From Treponema sp. (GTDB lineage Bacteria; Spirochaetota; Spirochaetia; Treponematales; Treponemataceae): a stretch of DNA of 64,000 nucleotides. Numbering within the stretch: the stretch's first letter is position 1; each line of letters opens with the position of its first letter. The translations under genes were made by a program, and so were the position numbers. The notes below the pieces were generated by a model. It ran no database searches and was not told the origin of the DNA. It saw only the letters and a list, made by a program, of their open reading frames with translations. Positions 2,566-53,107 of this stretch are shown one piece after another. The stretch spans positions 18,943 to 82,942 of the forward strand of contig JAFYWB010000055.1 of NCBI GenBank assembly GCA_017549025.1, given 5' to 3'.

Positions 2566-5500
2566 TTATGCTTCGGCACTTTCGTCGGGGTGGCGGCCAA
2601 CGGGAGCGTTAGACAGCATGAGCTTCAGGCGGTTCAGCTGGTTTACCTCGCTGGCACCTGGGTCATAGTCAATGGCGGAGATATTTGATTCAGGGAAGCG
2701 GTGACGCAATTCCTTGATCATGCCTTTTCCAGTAACGTGGTTGGGCAAGCAGGCAAAGGGCTGCACACAGGCAATGCTGGGCACGCCAGCGTGAATCAGC
2801 TCCACCATTTCCGCAGTAAGGAACCAGCCCTCACCAGTAATATTTCCCAGCTGCACGATATCGTCCACACCCTTCATCAGGTCGTAGATGGAGGCAGGTG
2901 GGTCAAATCGCTTGCTCTTGCCCAGCACCTTCTTGATGCGGCGACGATACAGCTCCAAGAACCAAATCAGGCGACGGGCATTACGCTCGGTCTTCTTTGG
3001 GAAGGCCAATTCCTCGTGACGGAAAATTCCTGTGGAGAAGGTGTAGAACAAAAAGTCTGCCAAGTCGGGCATAACGCACTCTGCCCCTTCTCGCTCGATA
3101 ACACGGCAAATGTCGTTGTTGGCGGTGGGATGGAACTTTACCAAAATCTCACCAACTACACCAACACGAGGCTTTTTCACATTCAGCAGGGGCAGTGCAT
3201 CGAATTCGTCTACAATGCCTTGAATCAGCTTGTGGTATTTTCGTACCGACAATGATTTAAGCTGCACCTCTGCCCGACCGCTCCACTTTTCATAGAGGGC
3301 ATCTGCGGAACCAGAAGTGGCCTCGTAGGGTCGAGTTCGGTACAGTACCCGCATCAGCACGTCACCAGTCATCAAGGCCATCATGGCACGGTGCAGCAGG
3401 GCGGGAGTAATCTTAAATCCAGGCTGAGATTCCAGTCCAGAAGCGTTTAATGAAAGCACTGGCACCTGTTCCAGTCCAGCGTCCACCAAAGCACGGCGGA
3501 TAAAGCCGATGTAGTTGGTGGCTCGACATCCACCACCCGTCTGGGTAATCAGCAGGCTCACGTGGTCCAGGTCGTACTTTCCAGACTTAAGGGCAGCAAT
3601 CATCTGGCCAGCCACCAAGATGGAAGGATAGCAGGCATCGTTATTGACATACTGCAAGCCTGTTTCCACCGCCATGGTATCTACCTCTGGCAAGATGACA
3701 AAATTGTAGCCGGAATACTCAAAGGCCTTTTGAACCAAGCGGAAGTGAATGGGAGACATCTGGGGAGCGATGATGGTGTGAGTTTTCTTCATCTCCTTGG
3801 TGAAAATCTGTCGCTTGTAGGCTGCAGAAATAGACACAGGCTTTTTCTGCTGGCGGCGTTCCCGCTCCCGAACAGCTGCAATCAAGCTGCGGATACGGAT
3901 TCGCACGGCACCAAGGTTGGAGCCTTCGTCAATCTTAATGAGGGTGTACATTCTGCCGTGGGCTTGGAGGATTTCGTCCACCTGATCTGAGGTAACGGCA
4001 TCAAGACCACAGCCAAAGCTGGTAAGCTGCACCAATTCCAAGCTGGGGAAGCCTGCCACAAAGGAGGCTGCACGATACAGGCGATTGTGGTAGGTCCACT
4101 GGTCCACAATCCGCAGGGGTCGCTCCACGCTTCCCAGGTGGGCAACGGAGTCCTCGGTAAAGACGGCTAGTCCAAGGCCAGACACCATTTCAGGAATACC
4201 GTGGTTGATTTCTGGGTCCAGATGATAAGGACGACCAGACAGTACGATTCCTCGTCCACCCATAATAATCATCTGGGTTAGGGCTTCTTCTCCTGCCAGT
4301 TGGGTGTCACGACGGAATTTCTCCATTTCCTTCCAAGCAGCATCAACAGCCTTTGTGATTTCTTCCTGAGGAATATCGAATTTTTCCTTCAATTCCTCGT
4401 GGAGACGCACGGCTAACCTGTCCTTGTCGTAAATGGGCAGGAAGGGATTCATAAAGGTAATGGAAGGATCACGGCGAAGCACCTCCACGTTGTTGCGAAG
4501 CACCTCAGGATAGCTGGTAACGATGGGACAGTTGTAGTGGTTTCCTGCTCCCTCGTCTTCCTTAATTTCATAAGGAGCACAGGGATAGAAGATAAACTTA
4601 ACTCCCTGCTTCAGCAAGGCTTCCACATGGCCGTGGGCAATCTTTCCCGGATAACACACGGACTCAGAAGGAATGGTTTCCAGTCCCATTTCGTAAACAG
4701 AGCGACTGGAACGGGGAGAAAGGCGAACACGGAAGCCCAGCTCAGTGAAGATGGTAAACCACAGAGGATAATTTTCGTACAGGTTCAAGACACGGGGAAG
4801 CCCCACATCTCCACGGGGAGCATTTTCTGGGCTCAGGGGCTTGTAATAGGAGAAAAGCCGCTTGTATTTCCACTCAAAAAGGTTAGGAAGCTTCTTTTCT
4901 CCATGGTCTGCGCCAGTGGAGGTGTTGTGCTTGTTGCTGGCATCCACAATCTTCAGCTCATCACCTAACTCGGCACCACGCTCGCAGCGGTTTCCCGTGA
5001 GGAAGCGACTTGCTTTGCGGGTGTCTCCTGCTCCAGCGGTAAAGGTGTTGATGGTCATGAGACAGTTGTTGTTACACTTACCGCAGCGACGAAGCTCCAA
5101 GTCTACGTTAAAAGAATCGAGCTGCTCTGGAGTGGCAATGTTGGAGCGAATGGTGGGAGGCACAAAGGTAGCCTCATCTACTCCCACAGGAGGACGAATC
5201 ATATCCTTCCACTGGTCCAGGGCAATGAGGGCGGCACCATAGGCACCCATCAAGCCAGCCACATCGGGACGGAATACGTTTACGCCAGAAATCTTTTCAA
5301 AGGCCCGTAGAACAGCGTCATTGTTAAAGGTTCCACCCTGCACTACAACCTTTGTTCCGATTTCGGAGGCACGACGCAGCTTAATAACCTTGAACAGAGC
5401 ATTTTTGATAACAGAATAGGAAAGACCTGCAGAAATATCTGCAACGGTGGCACCTTCTTTTTGAGCCTGCTTTACACGACTGTTCATGAACACGGTACAG

Positions 5501-7326: not shown

Positions 7327-7351
7327 CTGATAGATGGGGCTGGATAAAAAA
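7327..7351. repeat. Terminal fragment of the dispersed GGGGAAC-rich repeat family (right-end motif only)
   Basis: TAGATGGGGCTGGATAAAAAA (7331-7351) is identical to 31922-31942. It closely matches 51566-51586. Confidence 0.6.
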
Positions 7352-7355
7352 TTAT

Positions 7356-7440
7356 AAAAAAAATCCAGTTTTTCTGGAAAAAACGCATTTTTTTGCACGT
7401 TCAAACCTATAATCTATATGTAAGAAAAAAATCTTGGAGG
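7356..7440 (+). promoter_or_regulatory. Conserved promoter/5'UTR cassette upstream of Rpn-family gene (copy 1)
   Basis: About 85 bp, roughly 90% identical by eye to 52010-52093: AAAAAATCCAG-TTTTTCTGGAAAAAACGCATTTTTTTGCACGTTCAAACCTATAATCTATATGTAAGAAAAAAATCTTGGAGG. Contains TATAAT at 7408-7413 and a GGAGG RBS. Confidence 0.55.
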
Positions 7441-7445
7441 AAAAG

Positions 7446-8339
7446 ATGAACAGCAAACACCCCAACACCGAAAATCGTAAGCACAAGGACTCTCTCTTTG
7501 TGGATTACTTTTCCAAGGACAGGGACTGGAAACAACACTTTCTTTCTCTGTACAACGCCCTCCACGGTACTGATTTACAAGTTGAAACCACAAGATTGGA
7601 ACGGGTTAACTTGGAGCAAGTCTTGTACATGGACTACTACAACGACATTGCAGTTATGGTAAATGACCAGTTCATCATGATGATTGAACACCAGTCCACC
7701 ATCAATCCTAACATGCCACTACGACTGTTGGAATACGTGACTCGAATCTACGGCAACATGGTGGATTCAAAATCCAAGTTTTCAAACCAACTGATTCCTC
7801 TAGCTAAGCCAGAATTCATTGTGTTTTACACCGGCAAGGAAAATATCCCACCAGAATGCTATCTTTCCCTATCAGATGCATTTAAGCTGAACCACGTCCC
7901 AAACTCGGAACTCACACTTGAATTAGTGGTAAAAGTGTGTAAAATTAAAAGTACAAATCCAAGTCCAGTGGTACATAATTGTCCTGACTTGGAACAATAC
8001 GTACAGTTTCTCAAGCTCATAGACGAAGCGAAATCAGATGGGCAGTCACAGCCACTCACAAGAGCCATTCAAAAAGCTGTACGTCACAATGTGCTAAAAG
8101 ATTACTTGGAGAGAAAAGGAGGTGAAGTTTTGAGTATTTTGATGACTGAATATGACTATGCCACCGACATTGCAGTAAAACAAGAAGAAGCTTATGCTAT
8201 TGGCCTAGAACAAGGAGCCTACCAAAAAGCTTTGGAAACAGCAAGAATGTTTCTTTCCTACGGTGATTCTCCAGAGAAAGTCGCCATTTGCACAAACCTT
8301 CCGCTGGATCTGGTGATGGAGCTTAGGCAAAAAGCTTAA
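7446..8339 (+). CDS. Rpn-family recombination-promoting nuclease / putative transposase (YhgA-like PD-(D/E)XK)
   Basis: Motif MMIEHQSTINPNMPLRLLEY matches the hEHQS...M..Rll.Y core of this family. ATG 7446 follows GGAGGA; the track start 7434 is a TTG inside the RBS. The C-terminal tail GLEQGAYQKALETARMFLS...TNLPLDLV is shared with the paralog at 52087. Confidence 0.75.
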   Translation: MNSKHPNTENRKHKDSLFVDYFSKDRDWKQHFLSLYNALHGTDLQVETTRLERVNLEQVLYMDYYNDIAVMVNDQFIMMIEHQSTINPNMPLRLLEYVTRIYGNMVDSKSKFSNQLIPLAKPEFIVFYTGKENIPPECYLSLSDAFKLNHVPNSELTLELVVKVCKIKSTNPSPVVHNCPDLEQYVQFLKLIDEAKSDGQSQPLTRAIQKAVRHNVLKDYLERKGGEVLSILMTEYDYATDIAVKQEEAYAIGLEQGAYQKALETARMFLSYGDSPEKVAICTNLPLDLVMELRQKA

Positions 8340-31591: not shown

Positions 31592-31620
31592 ATTCTACTT
31601 GTATTGTGAGGACTGGTCAA
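31592..31620 (-). promoter_or_regulatory. Candidate sigma70 promoter of ilvD
   Basis: On the minus strand: TTGACC (31620-31615), 17-nt spacer, TAGAAT (31597-31592). GTGAGG RBS before ATG 31550. Confidence 0.45.
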
Positions 31621-31626
31621 GATTGG

Positions 31627-31944
31627 CTCACGAACATCAGCCCAGGAGACTGAATCCCAGCCACATCCCGGGAAGCAGGGGAACAGGAGCAGCATCTCGA
31701 GTGGTGGGGAACACAAATTTATCTAGGGAATCTGGGGAACCCTACCCCGCCTCGCACTTCGCTAACGCTCACAGTTCGGCTGGGCAGGGGACCTCCCCAG
31801 TTTCCCAGAATAATTTTTGTGGGTGTTCCCCACCACTCTGGCTACTATTCGTGAGGTTCCCCTGCTTCCCAGACTATTGCAGGTGGGGCTTCAATTTCAC
31901 GGTCTACTGTTCGATAACTGGTAGATGGGGCTGGATAAAAAAAA
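31627..31944. repeat. Dispersed GGGGAAC-rich palindromic repeat element, copy A
   Basis: Shares both termini and several internal modules with 51271-51588. Perfect internal inverted repeats at 31670-31684/31856-31870 and 31699-31714/31823-31838. Confidence 0.8.
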
Positions 31945-31974
31945 TCCCAGCTGAAACAAATTGCTTCAACTGGG
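31937..31974 (-). terminator. Rho-independent terminator of adk
   Basis: Minus strand: CCCAGTTGAA...TTCAGCTGGG stem (31965-31974 / 31946-31955), then a T8 run that is also the A-run at the right end of repeat copy A. Confidence 0.65.
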
Positions 31975-32000
31975 AACGTATAGCTGATTCAACGAAAAAC

Positions 32001-51237: not shown

Positions 51238-51266
51238 AGTATACCCCAAGGGAGGGAAAGTAGCAA
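51238..51266 (-). promoter_or_regulatory. Candidate sigma70 promoter of galE
   Basis: On the minus strand: TTGCTA (51266-51261), 17-nt spacer, TATACT (51243-51238). Confidence 0.45.
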
Positions 51267-51270
51267 GTTT

Positions 51271-51588
51271 CTTCACGAACATCATCCCGGGAGGCTGAAT
51301 CCCGAGCCACATCCCGGGAAGCAGGGGAACCAAATTTATCTCGGGAAACAGGGGAATAGGAACATCATCTCTGTGGGCTGGGGAACCCTACCCCGCCTTA
51401 CGCTTCGCAAGCTCAGAGTTCGGCTGGGCAGGGAACTCCCCAGCCCCATGTATAATTTTCGTAGGTTCCCCAGTTTCCCAGAATAATTTTTGTAGAGGGT
51501 TCCCCTGCTCCCCAAGCTATTGCTGGGCGGGGCTTCAAGTTCACGGTCTACTACTCGATAGCTAGTAGATGGGGCTGGATATAAAAAC
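51271..51588. repeat. Dispersed GGGGAAC-rich palindromic repeat element, copy B
   Basis: Termini match copy A. Left: CACGAACATCA.CCC.GGAG.CTGAATCCC.AGCCACATCCCGGGAAGCAGGGGAAC. Right: GGGGCTTCAA.TTCACGGTCTACT..TCGATA.CT.GTAGATGGGGCTGGATA. Internal inverted repeat 51316-51330 / 51499-51513 has 1 mismatch. Confidence 0.8.
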
Positions 51589-51669
51589 TCCCCCGTTACA
51601 GATGGAGCTGAAACGAGGGAGTTTGCCTCCTACACAGGACATTTTCTGGGGAAAATTTATGAATTATGA

Positions 51670-51961
51670 TGCCACACGGATTCGGAAAATCTACGATTTT
51701 CCTAGGCACAGATAAGTTTCTTTTGCTTACAGTGTGTAAGAATTTCCTTTGCTTACACACTGTAAGAGTCCAATCTTACACTGTGTAAGATTGCTTTCTT
51801 ACACAAGGTAAGATTACTATCTTACACATAGTAAGATTCAGCTAATACTACAAGTCCAATTACCCCAGATTTTGCGTAGCAAAATCGAATCTGGCTTTCA
51901 GCCAGTTCTGTAAGGAAGTGATTGGAATAGCGGCTCACGCCGCCTGCGAATCCGTGTGGCA
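51670..51961. repeat. Noncoding module bounded by a perfect 15-nt inverted repeat
   Basis: TGCCACACGGATTCG (51670-51684) and CGAATCCGTGTGGCA (51947-51961). Internal hairpins GGAAAATC-TAC-GATTTTCC (51684-51702) and GATTTTGC-GTA-GCAAAATC (51868-51886). Confidence 0.7.
51726..51836. repeat. Array of five palindromic 16-bp sites (CTTAC-N6-GTAAG) at 23-bp periodicity
   Basis: 51726 CTTACAGTGTGTAAGA; 51752 CTTACACACTGTAAGA; 51775 CTTACACTGTGTAAGA; 51798 CTTACACAAGGTAAGA; 51821 CTTACACATAGTAAGA. Confidence 0.8.
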
Positions 51962-52009
51962 ATCTCCCCATAGCACATTCCTCAAGGCCAGCCCATGGAA
52001 AACTTTCAC

Positions 52010-52093
52010 AAAAAATCCATTTTTTTCTGGAAAAACGCATTTTTTTTCACCTTCAAACCTATAATCTATATGTAAAGAAAAAAAACTTGGAGG
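52010..52093 (+). promoter_or_regulatory. Conserved promoter/5'UTR cassette upstream of Rpn-family gene (copy 2)
   Basis: Near-identical to 7356-7440. TATAAT at 52060-52065. GGAGG RBS. Confidence 0.55.
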
Positions 52094-52983
52094 TAAGATT
52101 GCTAACAGAAGCAGAATTACAGAAAAAGTGGGAAAGTTTGACTTTTACCGATAACTTTATCTTTTCTCGTGTCATGCACGATGAACACATTTGTCGTCAG
52201 GTGGTGGAGTTGATTCTTGGAGTACGGATTGGAAAGATACGTTATCTTTCAGCCCAAGATGAACATAAAACCGACCCAGATTCCATGCGAATCATCATGG
52301 ATGTATTCTTACGAGATGAAAATCGCATTATTAACGTAGAAGTTCAAACTGGTCACAAAAAGGAACTACCTAAACGAAGCCGTTACTATCAAAGCGTGGC
52401 AGATGTGTCCACAACTTCAACAGGAACCAAGTATCGAGATCTACCAGAAAACATCCTCATATTCATCTGTACATTCGATCCATTCGACAGAGATTTTCCC
52501 CGTTACACATTTGAATATACCTGCAAAGAAGCCCAGCACCAGCTCAAACTAAAGGACGGCTCACTCCGCATTTTTTTGAACACTAAGGCCACAAAGCTTT
52601 CAACCCTTGACCAGAAGTTACAAGCATTTTATCATTATTTACAGAAGGGTATTGCTGAATCTGGTTTAACACAAGAAATTTTCAACAAAATCACCACCCT
52701 AAAAAATAATTCCATTGAAAGGAGACATTACATGACACTGGCACTAAAAATGGCTGATATAGAATACGATGCATATGAAAATGGTTTCGAGAGAGGCCAT
52801 GAAGCTGGACTCCAAGCTGGCCTCCAACAAGGAATTGAACAAGGGATTGAACAAGGTCTTGAACAAGGAGCCTACCAAACCAAGCTAGAAACAGCAAAAA
52901 ATCTGCTTTCCATGAACTTCACTCCAACGCAAGTAGCCCAAGGCACCAATCTCCCACTGGACGTGGTACAGAATTTACTGTAA
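52087..52983 (+). CDS. PD-(D/E)XK nuclease family transposase-like protein (Rpn-type paralog)
   Basis: DNFIFSRVM..., IMDVFLRDENRIINVEVQTGHKKELPKRSRYYQS (D...E.Q core). Tail GLEQGAYQTKLETAKNLLS...TNLPLDVV. No ATG near the RBS, so the start is probably TTG 52099 (or TTG 52087 as in the track). Confidence 0.75.
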   Translation: MEVRLLTEAELQKKWESLTFTDNFIFSRVMHDEHICRQVVELILGVRIGKIRYLSAQDEHKTDPDSMRIIMDVFLRDENRIINVEVQTGHKKELPKRSRYYQSVADVSTTSTGTKYRDLPENILIFICTFDPFDRDFPRYTFEYTCKEAQHQLKLKDGSLRIFLNTKATKLSTLDQKLQAFYHYLQKGIAESGLTQEIFNKITTLKNNSIERRHYMTLALKMADIEYDAYENGFERGHEAGLQAGLQQGIEQGIEQGLEQGAYQTKLETAKNLLSMNFTPTQVAQGTNLPLDVVQNLL

Positions 52984-53107
52984 AGGTTGGTTTTTGGAGG
53001 GACAAGAGACGAGATATCGTAGTGCCTTGCCCGCTGACCAGTAGAGGAGCTCCCTCCCCCTAAAGCTCCTTCTCGACTTCCTTCCCGTCCTGTGATACAA
53101 TACTCCC

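Follow-up and report, generated by a model that had tools for sequence, protein, structure and literature searches.

REP sequences are 20–40 nt long, occur in hundreds of dispersed copies and are paired with the RAYT transposase, a Y1 HUH (IS200-like) enzyme. The pneumococcal BOX element is an intergenic repeat with the modular build boxA-boxB(n)-boxC. Type III toxin-antitoxin systems (ToxIN-like) carry direct repeats downstream of a promoter, followed by a terminator and by an endoRNase toxin (ToxN/AbiQ-type) that processes the repeats. According to PMC10400941 and PMC5350276, the Rpn (YhgA-like) proteins of E. coli are toxic nucleases whose antitoxin is encoded inside the gene itself, and the number of four-residue repeats that precede a conserved C-terminal tail varies among them (PMC10400941). 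No mention of a palindrome, hairpin or inverted repeat was found when both papers were searched for these terms, and the E. coli work defines no DNA site for Rpn. Quasipalindromes are established hotspots of template switching and instability, and template switching within them yields mirrored multi-nucleotide changes (PMC7202029; PMC8794818). In Wolbachia, a PDDEXK2 "transposase" adjoins the palindromic cid islands (PMC13439711).

Here we consider a window of 64,000 nucleotides (the whole stretch of DNA that was analysed), in which two intergenic copies, A and B, of a long imperfect palindrome, hereafter P, are present (Table 1); related loci in public data are given as L numbers. At every locus P is found in a fixed orientation 5' of an Rpn-family (TIGR01784/PDDEXK_2) gene, of a fragment of such a gene, or of a site that is occupied by one in a related genome. 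The order from 5' to 3' is P, the R motif (TAGATGGGGCTGGATAAAAAA), a promoter/leader of ~90 nt and the Rpn open reading frame, and the linkage of P to Rpn genes is strict and of a single orientation. We favour the reading that P is a cis-acting DNA module of the Rpn cassette, which makes the 5' boundary of the cassette prone to recombination, and not a MITE or an RNA gene; we give this reading a probability of roughly 0.45.

Table 1. Positions of the palindrome copies and associated features in the window and, in the last row, in related loci.
Feature	Position	Strand	Remarks
Copy A, P	31629–31913	+	left arm 31629–31740, centre 31741–31793, right arm 31794–31913
Copy A, left-arm modules	a 31657–31684, b 31685–31712, c 31713–31740		preceded by a degenerate outer unit
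Copy A, R motif TAGATGGGGCTGGATAAAAAAAA	31922–31944	+
ilvD promoter TTGACC-17-TAGAAT	31592–31620	-	adjoins left edge of P
adk intrinsic terminator	31945–31975	-	right-hand boundary
Copy B, P	51274–51557	+	a-c-b, centre 51387–51436, b'-c'-a'
Copy B, R motif TAGATGGGGCTGGATATAAAAA	51566–51587	+
Hairpin AAAAACTCCC...GGGAGTTT	51583–51624		L002 and L004 also have it after R
Short conserved hairpin segment GGAAAATC-TAC-GATTTTCC	51669–51702	+	common to L050; between R and leader
Lineage-specific insert, ~290 bp	51705–51996		between R and leader; absent from L050
Five CTTACAnnnnGTAAG palindromes	51726–51835		inside the ~290-bp insert
Rpn leader/promoter	51997–52098	+	TATAAT 52060–52065, GGAGG RBS; >90% identical upstream of divergent paralogs
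Rpn-family gene	52099–52983	+	TIGR01784 (115.6 bits), PF12784; alternative upstream TTG start at 52087
3' tail of Rpn unit, ~75 nt	52984–53063	+	common to L028, L044 and L048
Solo R motif, no palindrome	7331–7351	+	upstream of second Rpn paralog
Leader of second Rpn paralog	7355–7445	+	TATAAT 7408–7413
Second Rpn paralog	7446–8339	+	26% identical to the first; weak TIGR01784 match, below cutoff
Three-hairpin module, 78 nt	L001 2468–2552; L024 9206–9296, 9408–9486, 9697–9752; L026 9403–9487

Distribution of the palindrome and its linkage to Rpn genes

The P family, which occurs in a small group of gut Treponema, was found at nine distinct loci in public data, in metagenome assemblies of several Treponema species. 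A scan of 185,579 species genomes for an exact 20-mer from the centre of P identified six loci, spread over three Treponema MAGs, and an 18-mer scan of a metagenome collection gave 17 matches, i.e., two true copies and 15 chance matches that were mostly on high-GC contigs. L001–L006, L009 and L023 were obtained from DNA-pattern scans, while the copies in L024–L027 and a mini-version in L050 came from protein-led fetches. No match to P was found in a plasmid collection (distant blastn) or in two viral-contig scans. At the gathering threshold Rfam gave no match in the window and none usable for copies A, B and L024, and in E-value mode it returned only sub-threshold noise, e.g., DUF3800-VIII (20.9 bits vs 40.2). 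This agrees with the first-pass annotation, in which P was not assigned to any known IS, MITE or Rfam family but was taken for a repeat family; copies beyond the two in the window do exist and their presence is polymorphic. There are about 2–3 copies per genome, and the MAG RGIG9546 carries at least three (L004, L006, and L025). Contig breaks at or near the Rpn unit are frequent (L005, L035–L041, L065, and L066), as expected because the unit is a repeat; L065 and L066, which are same-species contigs of the copy B locus, end before reaching P. All loci are MAGs or short contigs from a few related species, and the copies of P are therefore non-independent.

The association between P and Rpn was first seen through DNA-pattern scans and not through a protein-based search. 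Among the pattern-found loci, L002, L003, L006/L023, and L009 have an Rpn gene on the same strand just downstream and L001 has a C-terminal fragment; L004 and L005 are orthologous to the L001 locus. The chance of finding a correctly oriented Rpn start within ~1 kb downstream is ~2% per locus, because there are just two Rpn genes in the 64-kb window, and Rpn adjacency in all five pattern-found loci is far beyond chance when the loci are counted as independent, although the copies come from few related MAGs. In 9 of the 11 cassette loci examined P is located at the 5' boundary, in one orientation. These observations do not support the view of a "dispersed", self-standing noncoding element with which the annotation had started: copies are few, each locus is tied to Rpn in one orientation and no target-site duplication is seen by eye at the two window copies.

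The layers of the cassette are separately losable, one by one. P, R and leader are all present in L003, L006, L024, and L050, as well as in copy B and L002 where insertions separate R from the leader. R and leader occur without P in the window (7331–7351 with 7355–8339), the leader occurs alone in L028/L048 and L044, P and R occur without the leader in copy A and L004, and P is found with the leader in L009. In cassettes with both, the leader's conserved TATAAT comes 3' of P. The leader of ~90 nt, with TATAAT and GGAGG, is >90% identical upstream of Rpn paralogs that are only 26–35% identical as proteins. This noncoding leader is much more conserved than the genes downstream of it, and is also found upstream of Rpn in other species. 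A 3' tail of ~75 nt is present at some Rpn loci, and its recurrence at unrelated loci suggests that the unit which is duplicated or relocated may span from the leader to the tail at 52984–53063.

The gene downstream of copy B is a genuine member of the Rpn family, as its matches exceed the family cutoffs (TIGR01784, 115.6 vs 52.1 bits; PF12784, 48.6 vs 27.4 bits); nuclease toxicity and an intragenic antitoxin are predicted from family membership. The region between YENG and GAYQ has lengths of 27, 31, 35, 39, and 47, i.e., steps of four, in the 13 homologs with recognisable anchors, and the C-terminal tail is conserved across subtypes. In the protein encoded by 52099–52983 and its homologs P0001–P0120, xQxG four-residue repeats precede this tail and their number varies between close homologs. 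An AlphaFold2 model of the protein encoded by 52099–52983 was too poor for use (pLDDT 41.8), and a PDB sequence search with the Rpn protein gave nothing relevant. Copy B lies ~540 bp upstream of this gene. The second Rpn paralog in the window has a solo R motif upstream, and a 96% identical homolog of it in L009 has the full palindrome upstream. Two cassettes show disruptions: in L002 a fragment of an IS3-family transposase lies between P and the Rpn leader (3600–4560), and in L006 (4365–5283), as in L023, the Rpn gene is a frameshifted pseudogene.

Modular anatomy and folding

The anatomy of P was derived from an alignment of 11 copies. P consists of one to four mirrored modules of ~28–31 nt on either side of a conserved centre of ~50 nt (CCTACCCCGCC...GGCTGGGCAGGG), with GGGGAAC in the left arm and GTTCCCC in the right arm, and amounts to ~300–400 bp per locus. 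The centre has the highest conservation within P, and the two heptamers are the least variable portion of each module. Units of the left arm are ~28 nt long and have GGGGAAC at their end; in copy A, where modules a, b, and c all terminate in this way, the period is exactly 28 (31678, 31706, and 31734). Units of the right arm start with GTTCCCC, are 29–33 nt long and mirror the left run, so that the right arm of copy A reads c', b', a', outer unit. When left modules are compared to reverse-complemented right modules the score matrices peak on the anti-diagonal, the exception being the innermost module of L002. TRF did not report the ~28-nt period as a tandem array. A CRISPR array was also considered and, from the repeats themselves, rejected, as the units share the GGGGAAC heptamer alone and the "spacers" pair with the opposite arm.

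Three architectures were found: a-b-c|c'-b'-a' (copy A, L001, and L026), a-c-b|b'-c'-a' (copy B and L003) and a-c-d-e|e'-d'-c'-a' (L002, L004, L006/L023, and L009). The mini-version in L050 has one stem and a diverged centre, and still folds at z = -6.3. In L001 and L024–L027 the apex of the P hairpin carries an inserted module of ~78 nt, composed of three small hairpins (...AAAACCGCGATATATTGAGCGGTTTT...CACTTTTGCCCCGCAAAAGTG...), which also recurs alongside P. This module has no match in Rfam; perhaps it is a small element in its own right that aims at hairpin tips.

Copy A (31627–31944) and copy B (51271–51588) are 77.5% identical over 329 nt (E 6e-59), and their column identity in alignment A1 is 84%; the shared ends and modules on which the annotation had based its repeat family are thus real. 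It had also described copy A as a nested imperfect palindrome centred near 31765, and this stands. The arms GGGAAGCAGGGGAAC (31670–31684) and GAGTGGTGGGGAACAC (31699–31714) pair with GTTCCCCTGCTTCCC (31856–31870) and GTGTTCCCCACCACTC (31823–31838), respectively, and every quoted segment was located, except that the third right-hand one is 23 nt long and ends at 31801 rather than 31800. The interval originally given for the element needs to be divided: P occupies 31629–31913, and 31922–31944 is the promoter-proximal R motif of Rpn. All four GTTCCCC heptamers of the 64-kb window fall within copies A and B, as do five of the eight GGGGAAC heptamers.

P is an imperfect palindrome over its entire length and its end sequences are therefore complementary (CACGAACATCA.../...CTACTGTTCG), and each window copy is 68.5% identical to its own reverse complement over 210–216 nt (E ~1e-13). 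Copy A folds into a single long hairpin with RNA z-scores of -6.7 (+ strand) and -10.2 (- strand) and a DNA folding z-score of -7.2, values that shuffled sequences never matched; for both window copies folding far exceeds that of shuffled sequence. The hairpin is made of GC-rich helices of 12–16 bp interspersed with AT-rich imperfect stretches. No Pfam match was found for the open reading frames that overlap P. An origin of P as a degraded protein-coding gene is ruled out by this and by a palindromic build that is incompatible with coding.

Locus context and turnover of the cassette

Copy A is located exactly between two synteny breakpoints. Two other species groups, with ilvD loci that are 81 and 73% identical, lack a P element there; homology to the window extends to 31625 in the former and to 31602 in the latter. 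On the other side contig L035 is 91% identical to the window across DHH-adk, and this homology reaches exactly 31937. It follows from these limits that copy A sits between the breakpoints and that the promoter adjoining it, which is common to the two element-free species groups, belongs to ilvD. At both window copies (31592–31629 and 51238–51274) a divergent housekeeping promoter adjoins P, the left edge of which lies 8–9 bp upstream of the -35 box; the divergent genes are ilvD at copy A and an NAD-dependent epimerase gene at copy B. A P-borne outward promoter for ilvD or the epimerase gene was ruled out, because conservation of the ilvD promoter extends to element-free species.

The copy A locus has no Rpn gene. 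Beyond 31937, L035 continues into an Rpn gene in canonical orientation with 83% nucleotide identity to 52021–52983; the stop codon of this gene and the A-run of the adk terminator are 18 bp apart. The contig covers the locus from DHH-adk through Rpn as far as AAGATGAAGTTTTTTCTGGG, where it breaks off; in L003 this sequence comes next after R. In the window the A-run of the copy A R motif is at the same time the T-run of the adk terminator on the minus strand; the two A-runs are fused, and the junctions are A-runs. Because L035 has Rpn exactly at the right edge of copy A, it is likely, judged from sequence comparison, that copy A is a relic from which leader and Rpn gene were deleted between A-runs. 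By parsimony, the polarity would be that of a deletion in the window rather than an insertion in L035.

At copy B the region between R and the leader is expanded. The ~290-bp insert holds five 15-nt palindromes, CTTACA(C)nnnnGTAAG, at 23–26-bp spacing, which look like a putative operator array for a DNA-binding protein. An unannotated open reading frame of 72 aa on the minus strand (51822–52040) overlaps the insert and has no Pfam match. The hairpin at 51583–51624 reads as a minus-strand terminator that would use the A-run of R as its T-run. The R A-run is the T-run of a minus-strand terminator hairpin in three contexts (31922–31975, 51566–51624, and 7331–7378), and the three hairpins are the adk terminator, a CTCCC/GGGAG hairpin and a TCCAG/CTGGA hairpin.

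Each P architecture was found with two to three different Rpn subtypes, and P architectures and Rpn subtypes reassort freely. The orthologous loci L001 and L004, with flanks that are 83% identical, have different P architectures, and L024 and L026, with 97.5% identical flanks, differ by a module rearrangement. Between copies A and B, module b/b' shows a mirrored multi-nucleotide difference. Copy A is 93–95% identical to L001/L005, copy B is 91% identical to L003, and among ten copies of P the left flanks show no relationship. The non-matching flanks of the relatives of copies A and B are, in fact, non-orthologous flanks. The idea that P is more conserved than its flanks was for that matter ruled out, since P is conserved no better than flanking genes when orthologous loci are compared.

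Possible roles of the palindrome and comparison with known systems

If P is a recombination-prone module of the cassette, it would act in cis and as DNA, as the distal part of the Rpn upstream region. A long, modular and imperfect palindrome could form a hairpin or cruciform, give rise to template switching during replication and take part in gene conversion from arm to arm or from copy to copy, and these events would turn the 5' boundary of the cassette into a recombination hotspot. Such a hotspot would explain why the arms change in mirror fashion, why P variants reassort with Rpn subtypes and why strains are structurally polymorphic, as well as microhomology deletions, one of which probably left copy A as a solo relic. 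That P causes the turnover of the loci is what we infer, as is any physiological role for P. Recombination is here read from its outcomes, and the conserved leader or the Rpn genes could cause it instead. Rpn genes without P exist (L028/L048, L044, and window 7446) and P is therefore unnecessary for persistence or relocation of the gene. It is also tempting to speculate that P is the cis substrate of the adjacent PD-(D/E)XK nuclease, with Rpn recognising or cutting the hairpin or cruciform and break-induced gene conversion shuffling the cassettes, but we regard this more specific version as rather doubtful.

The fixed orientation and the promoter-proximal position suit a regulatory role at least as well. 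P could be a transcription barrier or regulatory array that insulates a toxic nuclease gene from outside transcription or controls the Rpn promoter, either because a read-through RNA with the hairpin stalls or is cleaved by RNase III or because GGGGAAC sites, phased at ~28–31 bp, bind a protein. This is possible, if on balance unlikely. Rpn proteins are toxic nucleases and need restraint of their expression (PMC10400941). P has a single orientation and directly adjoins R and leader, a co-oriented upstream gene stops exactly at the left edge of P with no other terminator in L003, L024, and L001/L004, a minus-strand terminator with the R A-run as T-run lies on the other side in three contexts, and the GGGGAAC/GTTCCCC heptamers are the least variable part of every module. 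On the other hand, no T/U-run follows either end of the P hairpin, on either strand, and the scans flag the adk terminator only, outside P; P is therefore not an intrinsic terminator. The upstream gene is divergent at copy A, copy B, and L050, where there would be no read-through to block, P is absent from the Rpn genes at L028, L044, and window 7446, and we know of no candidate protein that binds the heptamers. A structured noncoding RNA gene, with one strand of P transcribed into, e.g., an antitoxin-like or regulatory RNA for Rpn, is less probable and deserves little credence. Its appeal lies in the very stable hairpins, in tandem units of ~28 nt 5' of a toxin gene, which loosely resemble the RNA repeats of type III toxin-antitoxin systems, and in the minus strand, which folds better in 8 of 11 copies with more G-U pairs. 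The latter signal is contradicted by the outer stem, where the plus strand has 17 G-U pairs vs eight A-C cells. Covariation, with which the annotation had proposed to test the stems, is weak at the base level: RNAalifold on seven outer stems found compensatory changes in 3 of 38 pairs and many broken or one-sided changes, and the five a-c-d-e copies are ~90% identical, too similar for a covariation test. Mirrored module changes are no proof of selection on RNA, because template switching in DNA also produces them. Moreover, no sigma-70-like promoter was found within either window copy on either strand, nor a promoter-like site beside them, Rfam has no match, P is shielded from the minus-strand side by terminators, and the Rpn toxin is a DNA nuclease for which a protein antitoxin is known.

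The remaining explanation, that P is a non-autonomous MITE-like element which inserts beside Rpn promoters by chance, seems to us very improbable. P does have sharp ends with terminal complementarity, i.e., terminal inverted repeats, similar variants occur at different loci in different species (93–95% for A, 91% for B), and some copies carry the inserted 78-nt module at their apex. However, no target-site duplication is visible by eye at the two window copies, and on the right P is invariably followed by the R motif or by sequence of the Rpn unit rather than by a duplicated target. R belongs to the Rpn unit and occurs without P at 7331–7351. Each of the merely 2–3 copies per genome is linked to Rpn, orthologous positions are kept across species, the 3' end of the Rpn unit has no matching repeat, and no autonomous partner with the same ends is known.

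Returning to P as a recombination-prone cis module, its proposed behaviour resembles that of quasipalindrome hotspots, which are likewise imperfect inverted repeats with concerted changes of the arms, but are generic short sites, whereas P is a conserved family that travels with a gene cassette (PMC7202029; PMC8794818). A caution of wider relevance is that mirrored "compensatory" changes in long hairpins may stem from DNA template switching and not from selection on RNA structure. The neighbouring gene passes the TIGR01784 cutoff and has the variable number of four-residue repeats and the conserved tail known from Rpn (PMC10400941). The likeness to the Wolbachia cid islands is loose: a PDDEXK_2 gene lies at the edge of recombination-prone palindromic DNA, but those palindromes are duplications of genes on the kilobase scale (cidA-cidB-cidB-cidA), compared to a noncoding hairpin module of 300 bp. 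Type III toxin-antitoxin loci likewise have short tandem units directly 5' of a toxin gene, and a terminator-like hairpin separates the two; in P the units are mirrored and upstream of the promoter, and the toxin is, by family, a DNA nuclease (Rpn).

The closest systems in kind are the REP/BIME-RAYT pairs and modular repeats of the BOX type, and none of their defining features that were tested was found in P. P resembles BOX in being intergenic, in having internal modules that vary in number and in the strong secondary structure predicted for it, but there is no sequence relation, and BOX modules are neither mirrored around a centre nor tied to a gene family. REP/BIME-RAYT systems are, like P, extragenic, hairpin-forming mosaic palindromes tied to a nuclease- or transposase-like gene; in contrast, P is ~300–400 bp long, is present 2–3 times per genome, always 5' of a PD-(D/E)XK Rpn gene, and has no dispersed population. 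Throughout bacteria, Rpn/PDDEXK_2 proteins bear the annotation "putative transposase", and in the literature searched no DNA site, ends or mobility mechanism was found described for them. P, which is located at synteny breakpoints and reassorted among Rpn subtypes, is a concrete candidate for their cis partner. If Rpn does act on P, this would be the first defined DNA "end" or target for Rpn/PDDEXK_2, and a PD-(D/E)XK counterpart of REP-RAYT.
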